From positions 1,598,005 to 1,662,004 of the forward strand of contig JBGLNL010000001.1 of NCBI GenBank assembly GCA_041300025.1: a stretch of DNA of 64,000 nt. Reading direction: 5' to 3'. This DNA comes from Dehalococcoidia bacterium. Lineage in GTDB: Bacteria; Chloroflexota; Dehalococcoidia; SZUA-161; SpSt-899. A program made the position numbers and the translations under genes. The notes under the pieces were generated by a model. That model was not told the origin of the DNA. It saw nothing but the letters and a program-made list of their open reading frames with translations, and searched no databases. Shown piece by piece: positions 1,492-59,042 of the stretch. Numbering within the stretch: position 1 is the stretch's first letter; each line of letters starts with the position of its first letter.

Positions 1492-2343
1492 TCAGGAGAA
1501 TCGGGAATTTTTTTCGATGATCCCTATAGCGATTGCCCCGGGCCCCAGATATGTTCCGATCACCGGGCCGATTCTGGACTGGTATATTTTTTCTTTGTCA
1601 AATACGGGTGACATCCTCTCGGTGAAGGCGGCAGCTTCTTCGGGAATCGTACTGTGCAGGATAGTCATCTCTTCGATGCCGGAAAACTCCTGCACCATTT
1701 CAAAAAGCCGGGCTAATGCCTTCTTCTGAGTTCGGGCTTTACCTTTCGGCTGCACCTCTCCCTCTCCCGTACCTATGAGTGGCTTGATGCTCAGCAGCGT
1801 GCCCATGAGTGCCTGAGCCTTGCCGATGCGTCCGCCCTTGTGCAGGTATTCCAGCGTATTGACCATGCCGAAGAAATGGGTGCGCGGAATAATTTCACGC
1901 GTTATCCTGAGAGCTTCTTCGAGGTTTGCCCCATTCTGAGCTGCCCTTGCTGCCTTGATTACGATAAGTCCCAGCCCCATCGAGGCCTGAAGGGAATCGA
2001 CTATTTCGATCCGGCAATTAGAATTCATCGCGTCTCGAGCCAGCAGGGCTGAACTGAGGGTACCGCTGAGTTTGGGAGAGATGTGAATGGAAATAATCTC
2101 ATCCGTCTGTTTGCTCAGCAAGTTATAAACTTCGGCAAAAGCGGCGGGGGTGGGCTGGGAAGTGGTGGGAAGGGACTTGCTGTCAGCCAGTTTCCGGTAG
2201 AATTCATCGGCTTTCAGGTCCACCCCGTCAAGATAAGTATCTCTGCCAAAATTTACGCTCAGGGGAACAACGGTTATTCCCAGTGATTGTACTATCGATT
2301 CGGGCAGATCGGCGGTACTGTCGGTCACTACTTTTACCGTCAA
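1492..2343 (-). CDS. DegV family fatty-acid-binding protein
   Basis: 283-aa ORF. The N-terminus VKVVTDSTADLPESIVQSLGITVVPLSVNFGRDTYLDGVDL and TSQPTPAAFAEVY are typical of the DegV family. Confidence 0.85.
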   Translation of the reverse strand: MTVKVVTDSTADLPESIVQSLGITVVPLSVNFGRDTYLDGVDLKADEFYRKLADSKSLPTTSQPTPAAFAEVYNLLSKQTDEIISIHISPKLSGTLSSALLARDAMNSNCRIEIVDSLQASMGLGLIVIKAARAAQNGANLEEALRITREIIPRTHFFGMVNTLEYLHKGGRIGKAQALMGTLLSIKPLIGTGEGEVQPKGKARTQKKALARLFEMVQEFSGIEEMTILHSTIPEEAAAFTERMSPVFDKEKIYQSRIGPVIGTYLGPGAIAIGIIEKNSRFS

Positions 2344-4106: not shown

Positions 4107-5285
4107 ATGGATTACCCGAAACTCAATGAATATCATTTGAAATTATGGAATGACCAGGCCTGCGGCGTCTGCCAGCGAGGACCGTGGACGCCCTATCCGC
4201 CGCGAGGCCCGGCGCCAGATCGGCTGTGTCCCACTTGGGAACACTATCGCCGGATCTCTTACAGCGCACAGGGCTGGATTCAGGCGGGCCGGACGCTGCT
4301 GGAAGGCAAGCTGGAGATGGAGCCTCGATTTGTTGATTATGTATATGCCTGTAACCTCTGCGGTTCATGTACCAACTCCCGATGCGTAGTGGCCGGAGAT
4401 CAGGTGAATATAATCAAGGCATGGCGCGAGGATTTGGTGAATCTGGGATACGGGCCAACCGCTCCCTGGAAAAAGGATGCCGAACTGATCGAAAGAAGCG
4501 GCAACCGGTTTGGACGTAATCAGGCAGATCGGGCCAAATGGGCAGACGGGATGAATCTCCCCGGAAAAGCCGATGTTGTGTTCTTTGCCGGGTGTGTGGC
4601 CTCCTTCCGCAAGCCGGAACTGGCACAGGCAACGGCAAAGGTTCTCAAAGCCGGGGGTGTCGACTTCGCCATATTAGGCGAAAATGAATTCTGCTGCGGC
4701 AATCCGCTGGAACAATCCGGGCAAGCAAAGGCCTATGAGGAAGTTGCCAGGAGAAATGTGGCTGCTTTACAGGAAGCCGGTGCTAAAACAGTAGTAACCG
4801 CCTGTGCCTGCTGCTTCCATAATCTGGCGGTACAATATCCAAAGGTGGTTGGTAAACTGCCGTTTAAGGTGATCCATCAGGTGGAGTTGCTCTCGCAACT
4901 GGTGGCCGAAGGCAGGATTAAGCCGGTCAAAGCCCCTGCTGGAAAGATGACATACCAGGACCCCTGTCACCTGGTTCGGATGGGAGCTAAGATATACAAC
5001 GAACCGAGGTCGGTGATCCAGTCTGTTCCGGGAATGGACTATGTCGAGATGGAAGCCAGCAAGCGAGCATCCTGGTGCTGCGGACGAAATCCGGTGGAAC
5101 AGCCGGAACTGGCGATGACCACCGGGCAATACCGGATAGAGGATGCCCAGTCGGCCGGTGCTGAGACCATCCTCACGGCCTGCTCTTTCTGTAACTGGAG
5201 TTTGGGGCGGGCGGCGAAGGACATGGAGACTAATGTGAGGATTATGTCAATAGACCAGATGCTGACCGAATCGATGGGAATGTAG
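4107..5285 (+). CDS. Fe-S oxidoreductase with two cysteine-rich CCG domains (GlcF/HdrD-like)
   Basis: 392-aa ORF. Cys clusters CNLCGSC, FFAGCVASF...EFCCGNP and YQDPCHLVR...WCCG match the 4Fe-4S plus tandem CCG architecture. Confidence 0.8.
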   Translation: MDYPKLNEYHLKLWNDQACGVCQRGPWTPYPPRGPAPDRLCPTWEHYRRISYSAQGWIQAGRTLLEGKLEMEPRFVDYVYACNLCGSCTNSRCVVAGDQVNIIKAWREDLVNLGYGPTAPWKKDAELIERSGNRFGRNQADRAKWADGMNLPGKADVVFFAGCVASFRKPELAQATAKVLKAGGVDFAILGENEFCCGNPLEQSGQAKAYEEVARRNVAALQEAGAKTVVTACACCFHNLAVQYPKVVGKLPFKVIHQVELLSQLVAEGRIKPVKAPAGKMTYQDPCHLVRMGAKIYNEPRSVIQSVPGMDYVEMEASKRASWCCGRNPVEQPELAMTTGQYRIEDAQSAGAETILTACSFCNWSLGRAAKDMETNVRIMSIDQMLTESMGM

Positions 5286-5298
5286 TGACCTGTTTGTT

Positions 5299-5406
5299 TA
5301 AGGAACCTCTGATCAACCCCCTGTATCCCCCAATCATGGGGGAAGATCGAAGCTGGGGGGACACCCCCAGACCCCCGAAGTCACCACTTATTCAGAGGTT
5401 CCCTAA
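5299..5406 (+). repeat. MITE-like dispersed element, copy A (full length, reference copy)
   Basis: The termini TAAGGAACCTCTGA (5299-5312) and TCAGAGGTTCCCTAA (5392-5406) are inverted repeats. The core has G5/C5 hairpins (cccccaatcatggggg, ggggggacaccccc). Related copies occur at 8 other sites in the window. Confidence 0.8.
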
Positions 5407-5453
5407 TAAACCCTTAAACTGTTAAACTATCAACTGAAAACAAATATCTGCCC

Positions 5454-5960
5454 GTGCAGCGAATTTTCTCAAGTATATCTATCTACCAAGAGGCTTGTCA
5501 AGTAAAAAAAATAGATTCAGTAATTCAAAACTCATCCCTTCCAGTTGTGCTGTACAACAATCCTGAAATTCATCGAGGGAAAATGCTGCCACTTTCCATT
5601 GTTTCAAAATATGCGGTCCATCCCAGAATAATCGGCATCAAAGACAGTTCCGGGGATTGGGAATATTTTCTTAAGCTGCTTGAGTTGCGTTCGGAAAGCT
5701 TTTCGATATTGCAGGGGAAAGAATCATCCATTCTGCCATCGCTGCTGGCCGGTGCGAATGGAATAGTTGCCGGAACGGCTAACGTCAACCCCGGGCTTTT
5801 TGCGAAAATTCTGTCTCATCAAGATGAGGAAACGATGCGCCAGATCACGGAGTTAAAGGATGAACTGAAGGAACTTGCCGAGAAACCGATTCCGGCACTT
5901 AAGCAAAAACTGGTCCATCTCGGAGTCATCAATTCTGCAGAGATTCTGGTTAAGCTATAG
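5454..5960 (+). pseudogene. 5'-truncated dihydrodipicolinate synthase / N-acetylneuraminate lyase family gene (C-terminal ~170 aa only)
   Basis: LPVVLYNNPEIHRGKMLPL...IIGIKDSSGDWEYF...GANGIVAGTANVNP matches the C-terminal two thirds of DapA-family aldolases. About 100-120 N-terminal residues are missing. The segment is AT-rich and lies directly after MITE copy A. Confidence 0.6.
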
Positions 5961-16057: not shown

Positions 16058-16086
16058 ATGATCAATCCCCCTGCCTAAAGGGGGGG
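16058..16086 (+). repeat. possible partial copy (left part) of the MITE-like element, copy I
   Basis: catgatcaatccccctgcctaaagggggg resembles ctgatcaaccccctgtatcccccaatcatggggg of copy A. The match is weak. Confidence 0.35.
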
Positions 16087-18980: not shown

Positions 18981-19048
18981 GGCATGCTTATTTCAGCAAT
19001 CTCGACAATTATGGATGATTCATGGCGGGTTGGCAAGATGGGAATTGA

Positions 19049-19091
19049 TACTCCAGACCCCCGAAGCACCACTTGTTCACAAGGTGCCTTA
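19049..19091 (+). repeat. partial (right-end) copy of the MITE-like element, copy G
   Basis: tccagacccccgaagcaccacttgttcacaaggtgccttag versus copy A cccagacccccgaagtcaccacttattcagaggttccctaa. The stop codon of the downstream minus-strand ORF lies in its terminal TTAG. Confidence 0.6.
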
Positions 19092-22699: not shown

Positions 22700-23911
22700 T
22701 CAGCTTGCGATCACCGTGGGCCCTTCGCCGAAAGGCTCGTCGGGAACTAGGGATTCCTCCGGCTTATCAATCAGAGCAATTGAAGCCACGCTATCGCCTT
22801 TGTTGAGCCTTATTGTCCTTACCCCCTGAGTGCTGCGCCCGAACTTGGATATCCCTTTCAGCAGGGTCCGTATAATGGTTCCGTTTTTGGTGGTTACCAT
22901 TAACTGCTGGTTCAGGTCTACCACCGCAGCGTCTTTTACCGGGCCGGTTTTTTCGTTTACAAGGTGGGCCCGTATCCCACTACCGCCGCGGATTTGCTGG
23001 CGGTATTCGTCTACAGGAGTGCGTTTCCCGTACCCGTTCTGGGTGACTGTCAGCACGAATGCGTTGGGGCGAATAATATCCATGGCTACCGCCCGGTCAT
23101 CGCCGATTAGCCGGATGCCGCGAACCCCTCCGCTGGTTCGTGAGGCGGTGCGCAGTTTGTCAACTGAAAATCTGATGGACTGCCCTTTACGTGTGACGAT
23201 AATAGCATCATTTTCCTGGGTTGCAGCCTTTACCGAGATCAGGCTATCGCCCTTTTCAACATTCATCGCTATGATCCCGGTACTTCGGATAGCGGAGAAC
23301 CGTTTGAGTTCGGATTTTTTAACCTCCCCTTTTTCGGTGGCCATGACAATGAAACCATCCTCCGGGAAATTAGAGGCCGACATTATAGCGGTGATATGCT
23401 CATTGTTTTCTATGGGAATCAGATTTATTATGGGCAATCCTTTGGCCTGGCGGGTGCTTTCCTGGGGCAACTGATAGCATTTGAGGCGGAAGACCCGACC
23501 TCTGGTGGTGAAGAAAAGCAGGGTATCGTGGGTATCGGTGATGAGCAGATGGCGCACATCATCGGTTTCCTGCACCTTCATCCCGCTGACCCCCTTGCCT
23601 CCCCTGTGCTGGGTCCGGTATGTATGGCTGGGCAACCGTTTGACATATCCGCGGTCGCTCACGGTAACCACTACCTGCTGATGGGCTATCAGTTCCTCGT
23701 CGGTGAAACCCCCTATCTCCTCGTCATTTAACTCTGTACGGCGCTCATCACCATACTTTTCACTGATTCTGAGCATTTCTTCCTTGATGAGATAATCGAT
23801 TTTTCGGGGATTGGCGAGCAGGTCTTCCAGATAAGCGATGGTCTGTAAAAGTTCGGCGTATTCGTCGTCGATTTTCTGCCTTTCCATTGCTGCCAGCCGG
23901 CGCAGTTGCAT
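22700..23911 (-). CDS. gyrA: DNA gyrase subunit A, 3' part (end of the coiled-coil/tower region plus the C-terminal beta-pinwheel domain)
   Basis: [61 protein letters not shown], then repeated GyrA-CTD blades ([78 protein letters not shown]). It is part of track ORF 22700..24775. Confidence 0.9.
23813..23911 (-). repeat. 99-bp segment identical (reverse complement) to 53158-53256
   Basis: Base-by-base comparison by eye finds a 99/99 match. It encodes [33 protein letters not shown] in both copies. Confidence 0.9.
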
Positions 23912-24775
23912 AGCCCCATGCAATACTCCATCGCTTCCGAGCATCAATGTAGCGCAGTGCTCTTGCCCATCGAGCCCTCTCCCTGCCGCTTCAACCCCGA
24001 CGAGTTTGACCTTCTCATCTTCGAGGAAGGCATGGAAAATTCCTATGGCATTGCTTCCGCCACCGACGCAGGCCACAATGTAATCGGGAAGCCGGTTATA
24101 TTTTGAAAGTATCTGCTCCCTGGTCTCCCTGCCGATGATCGATTGCAAATCTCTCACCATCATCGGATACGGGTGCGGGCCCACGACCGATCCGATCAAA
24201 TAATGGGTGGTGCGCACGTTGGTTACCCAGTCGCGAATGGCCTCGTTGATGGCGTCCTTCAGTGTGCGGCTCCCTGAAAGCACCGGCCGGACCTCGGCTC
24301 CCAGTATTTTCATGCGGAAGACGTTGGAAGATTGTCGATGAATATCCTCTTCCCCCATGTAGACGATGCATTCGAGCCCGAGCAGGGCGCAAATGGTGGC
24401 TGTAGCCACGCCATGCTGACCGGCTCCGGTTTCGGCAATGATGCGCTTCTTGCCCATGCGCCGGGCCAGTAGCCCTTGTCCGAGAGCGTTGTTTATCTTG
24501 TGAGCGCCGGTGTGGGCCAGATCCTCCCGTTTAAGCAGGATTTTAGCCCCGCCCATTTTTTGTGAGAGCCTTTTGGCGTAATAAAGCGGTGTGGGTCTGC
24601 CCACATATTCACGGCATAGATCGTTGAATTCATCCCAGAAGCCATGGTCCTTGCGGGCTTCCTCATATGCCTGATTGAGTTCTTTTAAGGCCGGCATCAG
24701 TGTTTCCGGGACGAATTTTCCACCCCAGATACCAAAGTGCCCTCTTTCATCTGGTAGTTTTGTTTTCAAATTCAT
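23912..24775 (-). CDS. trpB: tryptophan synthase beta chain, 5' 288 codons only, fused in frame to the gyrA 3' part
   Basis: [55 protein letters not shown], ends ...GSDGVLHGA. About the C-terminal 100 residues are missing. Confidence 0.9.
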
Positions 24776-29715: not shown

Positions 29716-29818
29716 AAACGAGTGAATAAGTGGTGAATCCGGGGGGAATTGTGATTATCCCCCCAGCCTCAACTATTCTCAGAGGCTGGGGGGATACGGT
29801 TGGCTAATCAGAGGTTCC
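29716..29818 (-). repeat. MITE-like element, copy D (full length, diverged core, one degenerate end)
   Basis: The reverse complement reads GGAACCTCTGATTAGCC...tatcccccc...ggggggat...ccccccggattcaccacttattca. One end is an intact TCAGAGGTTCC (29808-29818). Confidence 0.7.
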
Positions 29819-42625: not shown

Positions 42626-42659
42626 TAAAGGAACCTGAGAATAAGCGGTGACTTCGGGG
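42626..42659 (-). repeat. partial (right-end) copy of the MITE-like element, copy F
   Basis: TAAAGGAACCTGAGAATAAGCGGTGACTTCGGGG versus the reverse complement of the copy A right end TTAGGGAACCTCTGAATAAGTGGTGACTTCGGGGG. Confidence 0.6.
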
Positions 42660-42707
42660 TTCTGATTACAAGATTCCCGACCATTTTTGAGAGGTTACTA
42701 ATTTATT

Positions 42708-50382: not shown

Positions 50383-50483
50383 GCTTGTGATCAACCCCCT
50401 GTATCCCCCAATCATGGGGGAAAATTGAAGCTGGGGGACGCCCCCAGACCCCCGAAGTCACCACTTAATCAGAGGTTTCTTAG
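50383..50483 (+). repeat. MITE-like element, copy B (near full length; left end degenerate)
   Basis: Differs from copy A at roughly 7 positions over about 93 nt by eye. The right end TCAGAGGTTTCTTAG contains the nfi stop codon on the other strand. Confidence 0.8.
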
Positions 50484-51888: not shown

Positions 51889-53262
51889 ATGGAAATCGGA
51901 ACAGTCAAGCAAGTTACCCTTGAAGATGAAGTAAGAAGCGCATATCTTGATTACGCCATGAGCGTGATCGTCTCCCGGGCTCTGCCCGATGCCCGTGACG
52001 GGATGAAGCCCGTACAAAGGCGAATTCTCTACGGGATGAACGATCTCGGCGTCGCCTATAATACCCCCTTCAAGAAGAGCGCGCGTATTGTTGGTGAGGT
52101 CATGGGTAAATATCACCCTCATGGCGATTCAGCCATATACGATGCCATGGTACGTATGGCACAGGATTTCTCCATGCGCTACCCCCTTGTCGACGGCCAG
52201 GGGAACTTCGGGAGCATGGATAACGATCCTCCCGCAGCTATGCGTTACACCGAGGCCCGTATTTCCCGGATCGCCGGAGAAATGCTGGCTGATATCGAAA
52301 AGGAAACCGTCAACTTTTCCCCCAACTTCGATGACTCGCTTCAGGAACCGACTGTCCTCCCCACCCAGATACCCAACCTACTGCTCAACGGAGCAGCAGG
52401 GATTGCGGTAGGCATGGCAACGAACATTCCGCCGCACAACCTTAGAGAGCTGGCCGAAGCTATCGCCTTTCTGATCGACAACCCGGAGGTCTCCACTGAG
52501 GAACTGATTCCCCTGGTACCGGGGCCGGATTTCCCCACAGGCGGTACTATCCTCGGCCGGGAAGGAATTTATCATGCCTATACTACCGGACGGGGAAAGA
52601 TTGTTCTGCGGGCCAAAAGCCATACGGAAGAGATCGGGAAAGGACGATGCCAGATAGTGGTTACCGAGCTTACCTACCAGACAAACAAATCAGCGCTGGT
52701 GGCCAAAATAGCCGAACTGGTGAAGGACAAAAGAATCGACGGAATCAGCGAGATCCGCGACGAGTCCGATCGAAAAGGAATCCGGATCGTAATCGAACTG
52801 AGAAAGGATAGCCACCCTGATCACATATTGAATAACCTCTATAAAAACACCGTTATGCAAACCGCATTCCATGTCAATATGCTGGCGCTGGTGGACGGCC
52901 AGCCGAGGGTGCTTAACCTTAAATCGGCCCTTCGCCAATACATCAATTTCCGCCACGAGGTCATTACCCGCCGTTCCAAATTTGATTTGCGTAAGGCCCA
53001 GGAACGCTCTCATATACTGGAAGGACTAAAAATCGCTCTCGACAGGATAGATGAGATAATTACCACTATCAGGGAATCAGAGAGTACCGAAGCAGCCAGG
53101 AATGCCCTGATGGAGAATTTCTCCCTCTCTCAATTGCAGGCCCAGGCAATTCTGGAAATGCAACTGCGCCGGCTGGCAGCAATGGAAAGGCAGAAAATCG
53201 ACGACGAATACGCCGAACTTTTACAGACCATCGCTTATCTGGAAGACCTGCTCGCCGGTTGA
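51889..53262 (+). CDS. gyrA: DNA gyrase subunit A, 5' part (456 codons of gyrA, then G-stop)
   Basis: [71 protein letters not shown] (active-site region). It ends ...YLEDLLAG-stop immediately after the 99-bp repeat. Confidence 0.9.
53158..53256 (+). repeat. 99-bp segment identical (reverse complement) to 23813-23911
   Basis: 99/99 identity by eye. It is the last 33 gyrA codons of the 5' fragment and the first 33 gyrA codons of the 3' fragment. Confidence 0.9.
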
Positions 53263-53316: not shown

Positions 53317-53473
53317 CAGGCTGTCCGAAAACTCCTATGTATGTCATTCTGAACATAGTGAAGAATCTTTTTTGAAGCTGAGCCTCGGAGATTCTTCGTC
53401 ATAAATTCCTCAGAATGACACGTGTTTTGATATTTTCGGACAGCCTGTTGGATTCCGGCTCGGAGGCCGGAAT
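53317..53473. repeat. long nested inverted-repeat (hairpin) element plus an adjacent short hairpin
   Basis: Perfect arm pairs: caggctgtccgaaaa (53317-31) with ttttcggacagcctg (53433-47); tgtcattctga (53342-52) with tcagaatgaca (53410-20); gaagaatct (53360-68) with agattcttc (53389-97). Then ttccggc-tcggag-gccggaa (53453-72). Confidence 0.7.
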
Positions 53474-53507
53474 GGCATATCATATTTAGTTGCCGATTTA
53501 ATAACTT

Positions 53508-53553
53508 CCCATATGATTGGGGGATCACAGAGGGTTGAGCAGAGGCTCCTTAG
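53508..53553 (-). repeat. partial (left-end) copy of the MITE-like element, copy H
   Basis: The reverse complement CTAAGGAGCCTCTGCTCAACCCTCTGTGATCCCCCAATCATATGGG aligns with the copy A left end TAAGGAACCTCTGATCAACCCCCTGTATCCCCCAATCATGGGGG. Confidence 0.65.
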
Positions 53554-55330: not shown

Positions 55331-56206
55331 ATGTTCGAATGGCTCGATCATGATTTTATGCAGCGGGCGGTGATGGCCGGGCTGCTGATTTCAGTGGCCT
55401 GCGGCGTCATCGGTGTGTATGTGGTGGTGAATCGCATCGTTTTTTTGAGCGGTGGAATTTCCCACGCCGCTTTTGGCGGGATCGGGATCGGATATTATGC
55501 CGGCATCGATCCGGTGATGGGCGCTCTTTACTTCAGTCTGGCGACTGCCTTCGGGATCGGAGTTCTCTCAAAAAAAAGCCGGTTGCCGGAGGATGCGGTT
55601 ATTGGGATTGCGTGGGCGGTGGGAATGGCGCTGGGAATCCTCTTCGTCGATATGACACCCGGCTATACCGGCGATCTGATGAGCTACCTCTTCGGCAGCA
55701 TTTTGCTAATTGAAGATTCTGATCTGATTCGGATGCTGATCCTGGATGGCGTCATCCTGATCATTGTTATCGTAATGTACAAGGAGCTTCTGGCGCGTTC
55801 GTTCGATGAAGAGTTCAGTACGGTGGTCGGAACCCCTGTCAGGATATTGTATCTGCTGGTTCTGGCGATGGTGGCGTTGAGCGTCGTGCTGATGGTCAAA
55901 CTGATCGGGATCATCCTGGTAATTGCGCTGCTGACAGTGCCGGCTGTCATTGCCAAACAGTTCACCTACAATCTCAAAAAAATGATGGCGCTAGCTGTCG
56001 TTTTCTGCGCGGGGATCACTTTTTTCGGGTTGTGGCTTTCCTATGAACTGGATGTAGCTTCAGGGGCTACGATCATCCTGTTTGGCGGGGGTATACTCTG
56101 CCCCCGAAGTCACCACTTATTCAGAGGTTCCTTAATTCGGGGATTAGAAAAACTGCAGGTTTATCACCGGTTCTACAAAAAAATCCGGGCAGCAGTTACC
56201 TGTTAA
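55331..56206 (+). CDS. metal ABC transporter permease (ZnuB-like); native C-terminus obscured by a repeat
   Basis: Multi-TM ABC-3 family pattern. From about 56086 the ORF is read from MITE copy E (..[18 protein letters not shown]..). Confidence 0.8.
56086..56135 (+). repeat. partial (right-end) copy of the MITE-like element, copy E
   Basis: gggggtatactctgcccccgaagtcaccacttattcagaggttccttaa. The last 31 nt before the terminal TTAA are identical to copy A. Confidence 0.75.
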
Positions 56207-57428: not shown

Positions 57429-59042
57429 ATGCTTTCAATGGTACTCAGCAGAATGCAAACAAAAGCGAGCCTCTTCGTCGAGTCAAAGGTGGCATCTATC
57501 TTGACCCGCTTGCAACCATTCCTTGCATCTCGAAGCATCGAGCCTTTTCTCGTTGGCGGATACGTCAGGAATGGCATCCTCGGAAAAACGAGCCATGATA
57601 TTGACCTCGCAGTTGACTGCGAAACTATCAATACTGCCATAGAGGCAGCCGATTTTTTGAACGGCAGGTTCGTGCTGCTCGATGAACTTCATCAGATTGC
57701 CAGAGTTGTCCTGATGCAAAACGACCAGAGATGGCATCTCGATTTTGCCGCCACCAGAGGATCCATCGAAGAGGACTTAACCAAGCGCGACTTCACCATC
57801 GACTCAATAGCCGTAAACCTAACACAGCTTGAGGCAGGATGGAATCAGGTGGAATGCATCGATCCGCTGGAAGGTATCGGCGATCTCGAAAGAAAGCTCA
57901 TCCGGGCTACAAATGAATCCATATTCAGGGATGATCCGGCCCGCCTTTTGCGCGCGTTCCGGCTGGCAGCCGAATTCGGGTTCTCCATCGAACCTCAAAC
58001 TGAAAAACTCATTGAACGCGATGGCGAACTGATTGCCAGCGTCAGTGGGGAAAGGATTCGGGAGGAACTCGGGCGTATCCTCGAAACAGATCAAACCACA
58101 GCATCGCTGCGGCAAATGGACCGGCTGGGATTTCTCGATTACCTCATACCGGAGCTTTCGGTCTGCAAAGGTGTCGAACAACCCAAAGAGCATTTCTGGA
58201 ATGTCTTTGACCATTCCATAGAAACAGTAGCAGCCACGGAGAGACTCCTGGCGGCATTGAAATCAGATGATGAGTTGCTCGATTCTTTTGCCTTCTCAAC
58301 TGAACTGGTTGAATACTTTGAGCAAAAGGCGGGCAACGGCCTTACCCGCAAGGCACTGATTAAACTGGCTGCCCTGCTGCACGACGTGGCAAAACCACAG
58401 GCAAAAAGCTTCGATGAGGAAAAAGGCAAAATGCGCTTTCTGGGACATGCTCAAGAGGGTGCCCGTATCGCCGGAAATATTCTGGAACGGTTTCGATTCA
58501 GTTCGCTGGAAAAGGAAATAGTAACCAGAGTGATCGACCAGCACATGAGGCCGGGGCATCTCAGCAACACCCCGGAACCACCGACACCTCGGGCTGTTTA
58601 CCGCTACTTCCGAGATAATTCTGATACAGGGATCGATACCCTCTTCCTCAGCCTCGCCGATCATTTAGCCACGCGAGGGCCTTCATTAGGAATAGAGAAC
58701 TGGCAAAAACATCTGGCAGTAACCGGGCAAATGCTCTACAGTTGGTTCAATGAAGAGACAGTAGTTTCGCCTCCGAAGCTTATAGATGGCCACACCCTGA
58801 TCGAAACACTGGGGATGTCACCGGGGCCAGAGATAGGCAAGTTGCTGGAAACCGTGCGGGAAGCTCAGGCTTCCGGGGAAATTAAAACCAGGGAAGAAGC
58901 CCTGGATATTGCTAGAAAGGAGTTCGACAAGAAACATGCGTCTTCCTGCCGGGGGTTTTGGGGGTGTCCCCCAACACAAACTTCCCCCATGATTGGGGGA
59001 TCGAGGGGGCTGAAAAAGAGTTTTCAGACAACCTGTACATGA
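57429..59042 (+). CDS. cca: CCA-adding enzyme / poly(A) polymerase family tRNA nucleotidyltransferase with HD domain; C-terminal tail read from a repeat
   Basis: LVGGYVRNGILGKTSHDIDLAV, RDFTIDSIA, ALLHDVAKP (HD). The last ~30 codons (SSCRGFWGCPPTQTSPMIGGSRG..) are MITE copy C sequence. Confidence 0.8.
   Translation: MLSMVLSRMQTKASLFVESKVASILTRLQPFLASRSIEPFLVGGYVRNGILGKTSHDIDLAVDCETINTAIEAADFLNGRFVLLDELHQIARVVLMQNDQRWHLDFAATRGSIEEDLTKRDFTIDSIAVNLTQLEAGWNQVECIDPLEGIGDLERKLIRATNESIFRDDPARLLRAFRLAAEFGFSIEPQTEKLIERDGELIASVSGERIREELGRILETDQTTASLRQMDRLGFLDYLIPELSVCKGVEQPKEHFWNVFDHSIETVAATERLLAALKSDDELLDSFAFSTELVEYFEQKAGNGLTRKALIKLAALLHDVAKPQAKSFDEEKGKMRFLGHAQEGARIAGNILERFRFSSLEKEIVTRVIDQHMRPGHLSNTPEPPTPRAVYRYFRDNSDTGIDTLFLSLADHLATRGPSLGIENWQKHLAVTGQMLYSWFNEETVVSPPKLIDGHTLIETLGMSPGPEIGKLLETVREAQASGEIKTREEALDIARKEFDKKHASSCRGFWGCPPTQTSPMIGGSRGLKKSFQTTCT
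58950..59027 (-). repeat. MITE-like element, copy C (core conserved, ends degenerate)
   Basis: The reverse complement contains gatcccccaatcatgggggaag....ttgggggacaccccca.aacccccg, matching the copy A core. Confidence 0.7.

Follow-up and report, generated by a model that had tools for sequence, protein, structure and literature searches.

What is the short, hairpin-rich repeat at the beginning of this stretch of DNA, and how did it come to be scattered between the genes of a bacterium? The window, by which we mean the whole 64-kb stretch analysed here, lies on one contig of 1.77 Mb whose GC content is 49.4%, the Dehalococcoidia genome referred to as G000 in the following. An earlier note on the window had described nine dispersed copies or fragments and read them as a non-autonomous mobile or REP-like element family. 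The main part of that reading is supported by the genome-wide copies, a target duplication, a partner insertion sequence (IS) and orthologous empty sites. We consider it highly probable that the repeat is a MITE derived from an IS of the IS5 family (IS5 group), which keeps only the ends of the IS and encloses a foreign core.

The reference copy, copy A, is 101 bp long (5302-5402, plus strand) and has perfect 11-nt termini, GGAACCTCTGA and TCAGAGGTTCC. Its interior contains the hairpins CCCCC-AATCAT-GGGGG and GGGGGG-ACA-CCCCC, and the whole copy is predicted to fold into a TIR-closed hairpin with z = -4.3 for both strands. Perfect inverted ends had been recognized before; the TAA that had been included in them belongs to the target duplication and not to the element. 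When the loci of the window were checked by nhmmer and BLAST against the family consensus, eight of the nine proposed members were confirmed, and the weak fragment at 16058-16086 was dropped (not significant, E ~0.2). The locus described at 58950-59027, now 58941-59035, indeed carries the same core, but its termini, CAGGYTGTCYGAAAA, are those of a second family and not of the IS5 type. The loci, with L, U and E denoting the modules of the elements, are the following.

5298..5301, plus strand: left target-site copy TTAA of copy A, read directly; the family-wide flank logo is T-T-A-R

5302..5402, plus strand: copy A, type-1 MITE, L1-U1-U2-E1, with two G5/C5 hairpins; 109 bits (nhmmer), 99% to consensus

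5403..5406, plus strand: right flank CTAA of copy A, one base off the left TTAA and hence an imperfect duplication

~50384..50479, plus strand: copy B, type-1 MITE with a degenerate left terminus (GGGCTTGTGATCAAC) and the right flank TTAG; 105.6 bits, 94.7% over 95 nt

29716..29818, minus strand: copy C, type-1 MITE with recognisable termini and a diverged core; 39.4 bits, model positions 1-99

19033..19085, plus strand: right-half fragment, part of U2 and E1; model positions 40-98

42630..42678, minus strand: right-half fragment, E1 end; model positions 39-99

53498..53549, minus strand: left-half fragment, L1 and U1; model positions 1-51

56087..56131, plus strand: right-half fragment, E1 end, with 35 of 35 positions matching the consensus and TTAA adjoining at 56132-56135

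58941..59035, minus strand: type-2 relative with the same U1-U2 core, terminus CAGGTTGTCTGAAAA and a truncated right end; 96.8% to the type-2 consensus over 95 nt

53317..53447, plus strand: M3 element with type-2 termini, CAGGCTGTCCGAAAA ... TTTTCGGACAGCCTG, without the G5/C5 core (G000 1651321-1651451)

Judged from its diverged core, copy C appears to be an old insertion. Several copies of the window adjoin incomplete or extended reading frames. Copy A is followed by a 5'-truncated DapA-like gene (window 5454-5960), a phosphodiesterase-like ORF runs into copy B (50383), and a ZnuB-like ORF runs into copy F (56086). Such gene fragments and ORF tails fit MITE-associated deletions or recombination, or mis-assembly.

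How far does the family extend beyond the window? The genome scan with a hidden Markov model that the earlier note had proposed reveals many further copies. With a profile built from 33 full copies, nhmmer finds 156 matches in G000 (E<=1e-3), which are spread over the whole contig and account for 0.73% of its bases. Among these, 58 are near full length, 36 have the left end and the core but lack the right end, and another 30 represent right halves. The alignment places the start of the element at GGAACC, with TIRs that are conserved among the copies; the element is ~100 bp long and non-coding, with no element-specific ORF. The copies are 55% to 98% identical to the consensus, and for 48 of 49 G000 copies the nearest relative lies within G000. 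Since copies cluster by genome and cover this range of identities, amplification was evidently repeated and lineage-specific, taking place separately in each genome of the genus. Two copies, at G000:C1:735359-735458 and 867668-867767, have flanks that are near-identical on both sides for tens of bases, which indicates the duplication of a segment together with its MITE, and not two insertions.

At least 20 of the 41 independent assemblies of relatives contain related copies, which are absent from most of the phylum. Only this order and a few further families of the class carry the full core; no match to it came from the complete genomes of family f6 (1.4-1.9 Mb), nor from most of the 400 genomes searched across the phylum. 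Other carriers are MAGs that bear the title 'Dehalococcoidia bacterium'. The concern that the repeat might be a contaminant shared across unrelated bins is not borne out by this distribution, which is limited to related Dehalococcoidia assemblies.

Could the family nevertheless be an artefact of assembly or binning? There is at least one suspicious join in the window, where the two pieces of a split gyrA gene share a perfect 99-nt inverted overlap, and several copies border gene fragments. Such an origin is contradicted for the family as a whole by the diverged copies at 156 places, by their recurrence in independent assemblies, and by orthologous sites that are filled in one genome and empty in another, with duplications that are clean, and we give it next to no credence.

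What do the bases that border the element tell about its insertion? In aligned copies, the four bases outside each end read TTAA or TTAG, and the flank logo is T/C-T-A-R. Identical 4-mers stand on both sides in 25 of the 48 copies whose ends are resolved with exact boundaries, while shuffled pairing gives a mean of 11.5 and none of 10,000 shuffles reaches 25. Where TTAR is found on both sides, 16 copies are flanked by TTAG/TTAG and eight by TTAA/TTAA, and no mixed pair occurs (Fisher p = 1.4e-6). Flanks of this kind represent a direct duplication of 4 bp at a YTAR target. The suspicion of a target-site duplication was thus correct, while its length is 4 bp and not that of the TA or TAA first suggested. 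We also considered that the flanking bases extend the inverted repeat, which does not agree with the pattern of paired flanks. The 23 copies without matching flanks could be explained by decay, recombination between copies or mis-assembly.

A TA at both tips, together with a size and TIR length that resemble those of Correia elements, might equally suggest a Correia- or Stowaway-like MITE with a TA duplication, mobilised by a transposase of the IS630/Tc1-mariner type. In this case the base after the TA would not be expected to agree between left and right, but it does so in 24 of 24 copies, as expected for a duplication of 4 bp. Furthermore, the partner IS described below makes duplications other than TA (CAAA/CAAA) and belongs to the IS5 family according to both NCBIfam and Pfam. 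A TA-duplicating element is therefore very improbable here, and we return to the IS5-type MITE.

Is there evidence that the element has actually moved? To answer this, we located in G000 the flanks of MITE copies from two genomes of the same genus, G001 and G002. At locus L060, the filled site in G001 reads ...AAAG-TTAA-[element]-TTAA-GTAAAGACG, and G000 has a single TTGA there. Similarly, G001 carries an element at a site where G000 has a single CTAA (L073). At a third site (L077), G000 holds a 25-bp remnant ending in CAGGTTCC, which looks like decay by internal deletion. Taken at the level of sequence, these orthologous empty sites argue for mobility. Around copy A itself, synteny is broken in all four of the four same-genus MAGs.

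Which transposase could have moved the element? No two termini of G000 that were found paired at a distance of 0.3-6 kb enclose a transposase. The cognate transposase with the same TIR for which the earlier note had called is found in two related genomes: G010 and G017 contain four loci at which MITE-type termini lie 1,159-1,162 bp apart around an ORF of 319-336 aa. The termini of this partner IS read GGAAYCTCTGA. Its 319-aa ORF (L021 1462-2421 in G010) matches NCBIfam transpos_IS5_4 (NF033581) with an E-value of 7e-102 and 340.6 bits against a cut-off of 140, and in Pfam it matches DDE_Tnp_1 (PF01609) and DUF772 (PF05598); its identity to annotated plasmid-borne IS5-family transposases does not exceed 57%. 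Elements of the IS5 group, as catalogued in ISfinder and TnPedia, are ~1-1.5 kb long with short terminal inverted repeats that begin with GG or GA, and the length and ends of the partner agree with these values. The copies of the partner IS are flanked by the 4-bp duplications CTAG/CTAG, TTAG/TTAG and CAAA/CAAA. IS5 of E. coli likewise makes 4-bp duplications of YTAR (PMC5009759).

The two ends of the partner IS are unlike each other, GGAACCTCTGATCAAG... and GGAATCTCTGAATAAGTGCTGA..., and this difference is mirrored in the MITE: its left end, GGAACCTCTGATCAAC, matches the former, and the reverse complement of its right end, GGAACCTCTGAATAAGTGGTGA, matches the latter. G000 retains a relic of the same IS (1329223-1329390), which comprises a TTAA, the terminus GGAACCTCTGAA and codons 6-61 of the transposase, and then breaks off. 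It is 79% identical to the partner in amino acids and ~80% in DNA. The relic is located directly downstream of a tRNA gene (G000:C1:1329223-1329470; L051 about 1720-1970, minus strand). Intact transposase copies occur only in G010 and G017 and fragments in G014, G020 and G036; no copy was found in the four same-genus MAGs and no intact one in G000. MAGs often fail to assemble IS copies.

Two further loci in G000 came out of these searches. The only strong match to PF01609 is an IS1634-like transposase of 554 aa, which is unrelated to the element. A unit of 1,791 bp (G000:C1:565091-566881; L003 2092-3882), the only one that paired termini at the searched distances delimit, is bounded by two inverted L1-type ends with CTAA/CTAA flanks and contains a 358-aa ORF for a multi-pass membrane protein, which has no same-genus counterpart, and no transposase. 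It may be a composite of MITE ends that moved as one, and its flanks are found on different contigs in relatives.

The partner IS also bears on the REP-like label that had been given to the repeat. A REP or REPIN mobilised by a RAYT (Y1/HUH) transposase would be hairpin-rich and intergenic like the elements here, and G000 does encode an IS200-like TnpA and a RAYT-like protein. However, REPs come without target duplication, and a 4-bp duplication is seen here both in the statistics and at the empty sites. Both Y1 genes are flanked by unrelated palindromes (of the CCCCGCYGCTTGCGGCGGGG and GCTTGAAGCCCGCCC types), no terminus or core of the family lies within 1.5 kb of either, and a DDE IS with identical ends exists. 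The label does not hold, and mobilisation by a RAYT has in our judgement only a slight chance of being correct. The Y1 loci themselves are of a different nature: the IS200-like tnpA (142 aa, G000:C1:1363119-1363481; L136) has CCCCGCYGCTTGCGGCGGGG hairpins on both sides, which are unrelated to the MITE, and is followed by a highly structured GC-rich stretch beginning GTGTGCC, while the RAYT-like ORF (1138063-1138233; L137) is invaded by GCTTGAAGCCCGCCC-type palindromes that translate as 'GLKPALNKKAYKPKRAG' and are likewise unrelated to the MITE.

Together, these observations suggest how an IS5-type MITE would have spread. The element keeps ~15 nt of one IS end (GGAACCTCTGATCAA) and ~22 nt of the other (TCACCACTTATTCAGAGGTTCC), between which lies the 60-nt foreign core of two G5/C5 hairpins. 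The DDE transposase of the autonomous 1.16-kb IS would bind these ends in trans, and insertion would take place at 5'-YTAR-3', mostly TTAA and TTAG in G000, with duplication of the 4 bp. Trans-mobilisation in G000 and the four same-genus MAGs would have to be placed in the past, because none of these genomes yielded an intact cognate transposase. The family in G000 is now probably immobile, as only the truncated relic of the IS is left.

Where does the interior of the element come from? It did not arise by simple internal deletion of the IS, since its core bears no relation to what lies inside the IS and is common to elements with other termini. G000 contains type-2 elements of ~122 bp that have the U1-U2 core between CAGGCTGTCYGAAAA ... 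TTTTCGGACAGCCTG and show no consistent target duplication. Conversely, the M3 family combines type-2 termini, CAGGCTGTCCGAAAA / TTTTCGGACAGCCTG, with a coreless interior in elements of ~131 bp; it is present at 53317-53447 of the window and in ~30 other places of G000. Its palindromes read GTCATTCTGA..GAAGAATC / GAGATTCTTCG..TCAGAATGACA. No target duplication was seen for M3, whose copies are often nested in other repeats. A scan for modules by blastn-short further showed that chimeras (L1-U1-U2-E2) and nested forms (L1-L2-U1-U2-E2-U2-E1) are frequent.

The same core reappears in a different bacterial family of the order, f2 (genomes G029, G034 and G037), where it lies between GAGATYGTTTAY ... 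RTAAACRATCTC (L080-L099, L112-L129). These elements are flanked by duplications of ~7 bp (one reads TCATTTC, another AAAAAC), and their copies often stand in tandem within one spacer. In their third hairpin, the stem is kept and the sequence changed (GCAGGA/TCCTGC versus GCAAAGGGGC/GCCCCTCTGC in type 2 of G000). Across the families the core is ~85-88% identical, and the termini share nothing. Compared at this level, the MITE interior is no remnant of the IS; it is a module that passes between several families of repeats. The core may be maintained by selection or merely exchanged via nesting and recombination, and the position of the copies relative to genes has some bearing on this choice.

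For the context statistics we used a crude ORF caller, which predicts 1,518 genes and 82% coding sequence. Essentially intergenic positions are occupied by 50 of the 58 near-full copies. In 12 of the 48 copies with resolved ends, the stop codon of the neighbouring gene falls within the duplication, compared to 12% of the eligible YTAR sites (p = 0.011). Since both TAA and TAG are part of YTAR, one copy in four coincides with the stop of the gene next to it. The E1 end abuts the stop in 11 of these 12 copies. An asymmetry of the target cannot explain this preference, since it holds 6:0 even for the palindromic TTAA.

A second asymmetry concerns orientation. Between co-directional genes, 32 copies lie opposite to the genes and nine in the same direction (p = 4e-4). 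The counts are 18 opposite versus 4 same for core-bearing elements without the E1 end and 16 versus 1 for right halves; pooled over all core-bearing classes in G000 they amount to ~14 same versus 66 opposite, where the three classes are not fully independent and compound elements can count in two. In G029, with a different family and different termini, 13 elements are opposite and 3 same, which per locus becomes 9 versus 3 and is not significant alone. The copies are thus strongly biased to place their G-rich strand in the sense of the adjacent genes. This strand has stops in all three frames within seven codons, while the other strand is open in two frames throughout. Predicted folding is also stronger for the G-rich sense, with -56.9 versus -47.4 kcal/mol (z ~-4.3 each). 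We infer that the orientation bias reflects selection at the level of the transcript or of translation.

Other causes and roles that would involve strand or position were considered as well. Replication cannot give an 80:20 distribution, as the gene-strand bias of individual regions is only ~55-60% and elements of both strands are intermingled along the genome. The role of a terminator, which had been suggested earlier, is not supported: there is no T-run, and a scan found no terminator-like site in copy A. An outward hybrid promoter from the L1 end, with TTGATC as -35, was rejected, with a correctly spaced -10-like hexamer in 5 of 48 copies compared to 2 of 48 on the other side. A G-quadruplex on the G-rich strand was set aside, two of the four G5 tracts being paired with C5 in the predicted hairpins. 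No Rfam match in the window reaches the gathering score, and the region 5250-5450 has none even at E<=1.

Could the core then be the part that matters, an essential module selected by the host or for itself, with the IS5 ends as one of several vehicles? Such a module might stabilise the RNA or serve as a processing site in the 3' UTR, it might keep translation from reading through, or it might be bound by a protein. The idea is favoured by the occurrence of the same 60-nt core with three unrelated types of terminus (IS5-type; CAGGCTGTCYGAAAA, without duplication; GAGATYGTTTAY, with ~7 bp in f2), by its identity between families whose termini share nothing, by an orientation bias that tracks the core in every class (same/opposite 9/32, 4/18 and 1/16, with a trend of 3/13 in G029), and by the stronger predicted fold of the G-rich sense. 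Against it stand the lack of an Rfam match even at E<=1, the invariant G5/C5 of the stems, which leaves no covariation to support a structure, and a bias in G029 that is not significant per locus (3 vs 9). Sharing of the core can also come from nesting and recombination among co-resident MITEs, whose nested forms are frequent. On balance, an essential module seems rather unlikely, though it would add to the MITE reading without contradicting it. Taken to its full extent, it would mean that the core is a functional cargo which at least three transposon-end systems in Dehalococcoidia captured independently, and whose orientation was kept by its action in the transcript, for example as a 3'-end protector, a processing signal or a three-frame translational stop module. 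We put this forward as a doubtful proposal; if true, several unrelated transposases would have spread one regulatory device through streamlined genomes. In either case, a shared core under different termini together with a bias of ~4:1 offers a concrete, testable setting in which to ask whether the interiors of MITEs can be selected.

What does the family, read as an IS5-type MITE, mean for the genomes that carry it? The split gyrA of the window is instructive. Its N-terminal 457 aa (PF00521) are encoded at 51889-53262 (plus strand), and the C-terminal beta-propeller (PF03989 x6) follows in frame behind a fragment of a PALP enzyme at 22700-24775 (minus strand); the perfect inverted overlap mentioned above lies at 23813-23911 / 53158-53256. 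This looks like a mis-join of the assembly or a ~29-kb inversion that breaks an essential gene. The split is ~240 bp from half-copy H, not in it, and inside a cluster of repeats; blocks of homology with relatives also end near repeats. Half-copies might be assembly errors, products of recombination between copies or results of adjacent deletions, and most of them are likely biological, since 30 right-half matches occur genome-wide. With ~0.7% of a small genome made up by the family, and with copies on stop codons, in ORF ends and beside gene fragments, the family needs to be masked, as automated annotation will otherwise produce spurious C-terminal tails and split genes in these uncultured Dehalococcoidia. 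Assembly is affected as well: where a repeat of 100 bp occupies more than 150 sites, breaks and mis-joins are to be expected in MAGs of the lineage.

As a case of a MITE outliving its IS, the family is a clear one: the IS is intact in sister genera, a relic in G000 and undetected in the four same-genus MAGs. We found no paper that links Dehalococcoidia with MITEs and no prior description of the family. The present analysis adds the partner IS and its relic, the target duplication of 4 bp at YTAR, the empty sites, the association with stop codons and the orientation bias.

How does the family compare with known systems? The closest are IS5 and the IS5 group, with which the partner shares a length of ~1.16 kb, a single DDE transposase, repeats starting with GGAA and the 4-bp YTAR duplication, while the host here is an uncultured lineage of Dehalococcoidia. 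MITEs derived from the IS5 group likewise keep only the IS ends; unlike in these, the interior here is not derived from the IS, and its hairpin core recurs in further local families of repeats. In Neisseria, Correia elements (CREE/NEMIS) are also abundant, ~100-150 bp long, TIR-bounded, intergenic and hairpin-forming MITEs in a host genome without an intact transposase, and they are co-transcribed with neighbouring genes, as the elements here may be. Correia elements duplicate TA. The family described here differs from them in its 4-bp YTAR duplication, in the IS5-type partner identified in relatives and in the lack of any sequence similarity. ERIC/IRU elements of enterobacteria and yersiniae are similar as intergenic inverted-repeat elements of ~127 bp. 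Their orientation relative to transcription, as De Gregorio et al. reportedly described in 2005, matters for the fate of the mRNA, a precedent for the bias that is known here from gene positions; they differ in having no identified IS partner and an unrelated sequence. Finally, the mosaics of short hairpin modules in BOX of pneumococcus and BIME of E. coli resemble the combinations L1/L2-U1-U2-E1/E2. BIME and REP are, however, associated with RAYT and cause no duplication, and the modules of BOX are different, whereas at least one of the combinations found here is a bona fide IS5-type MITE.
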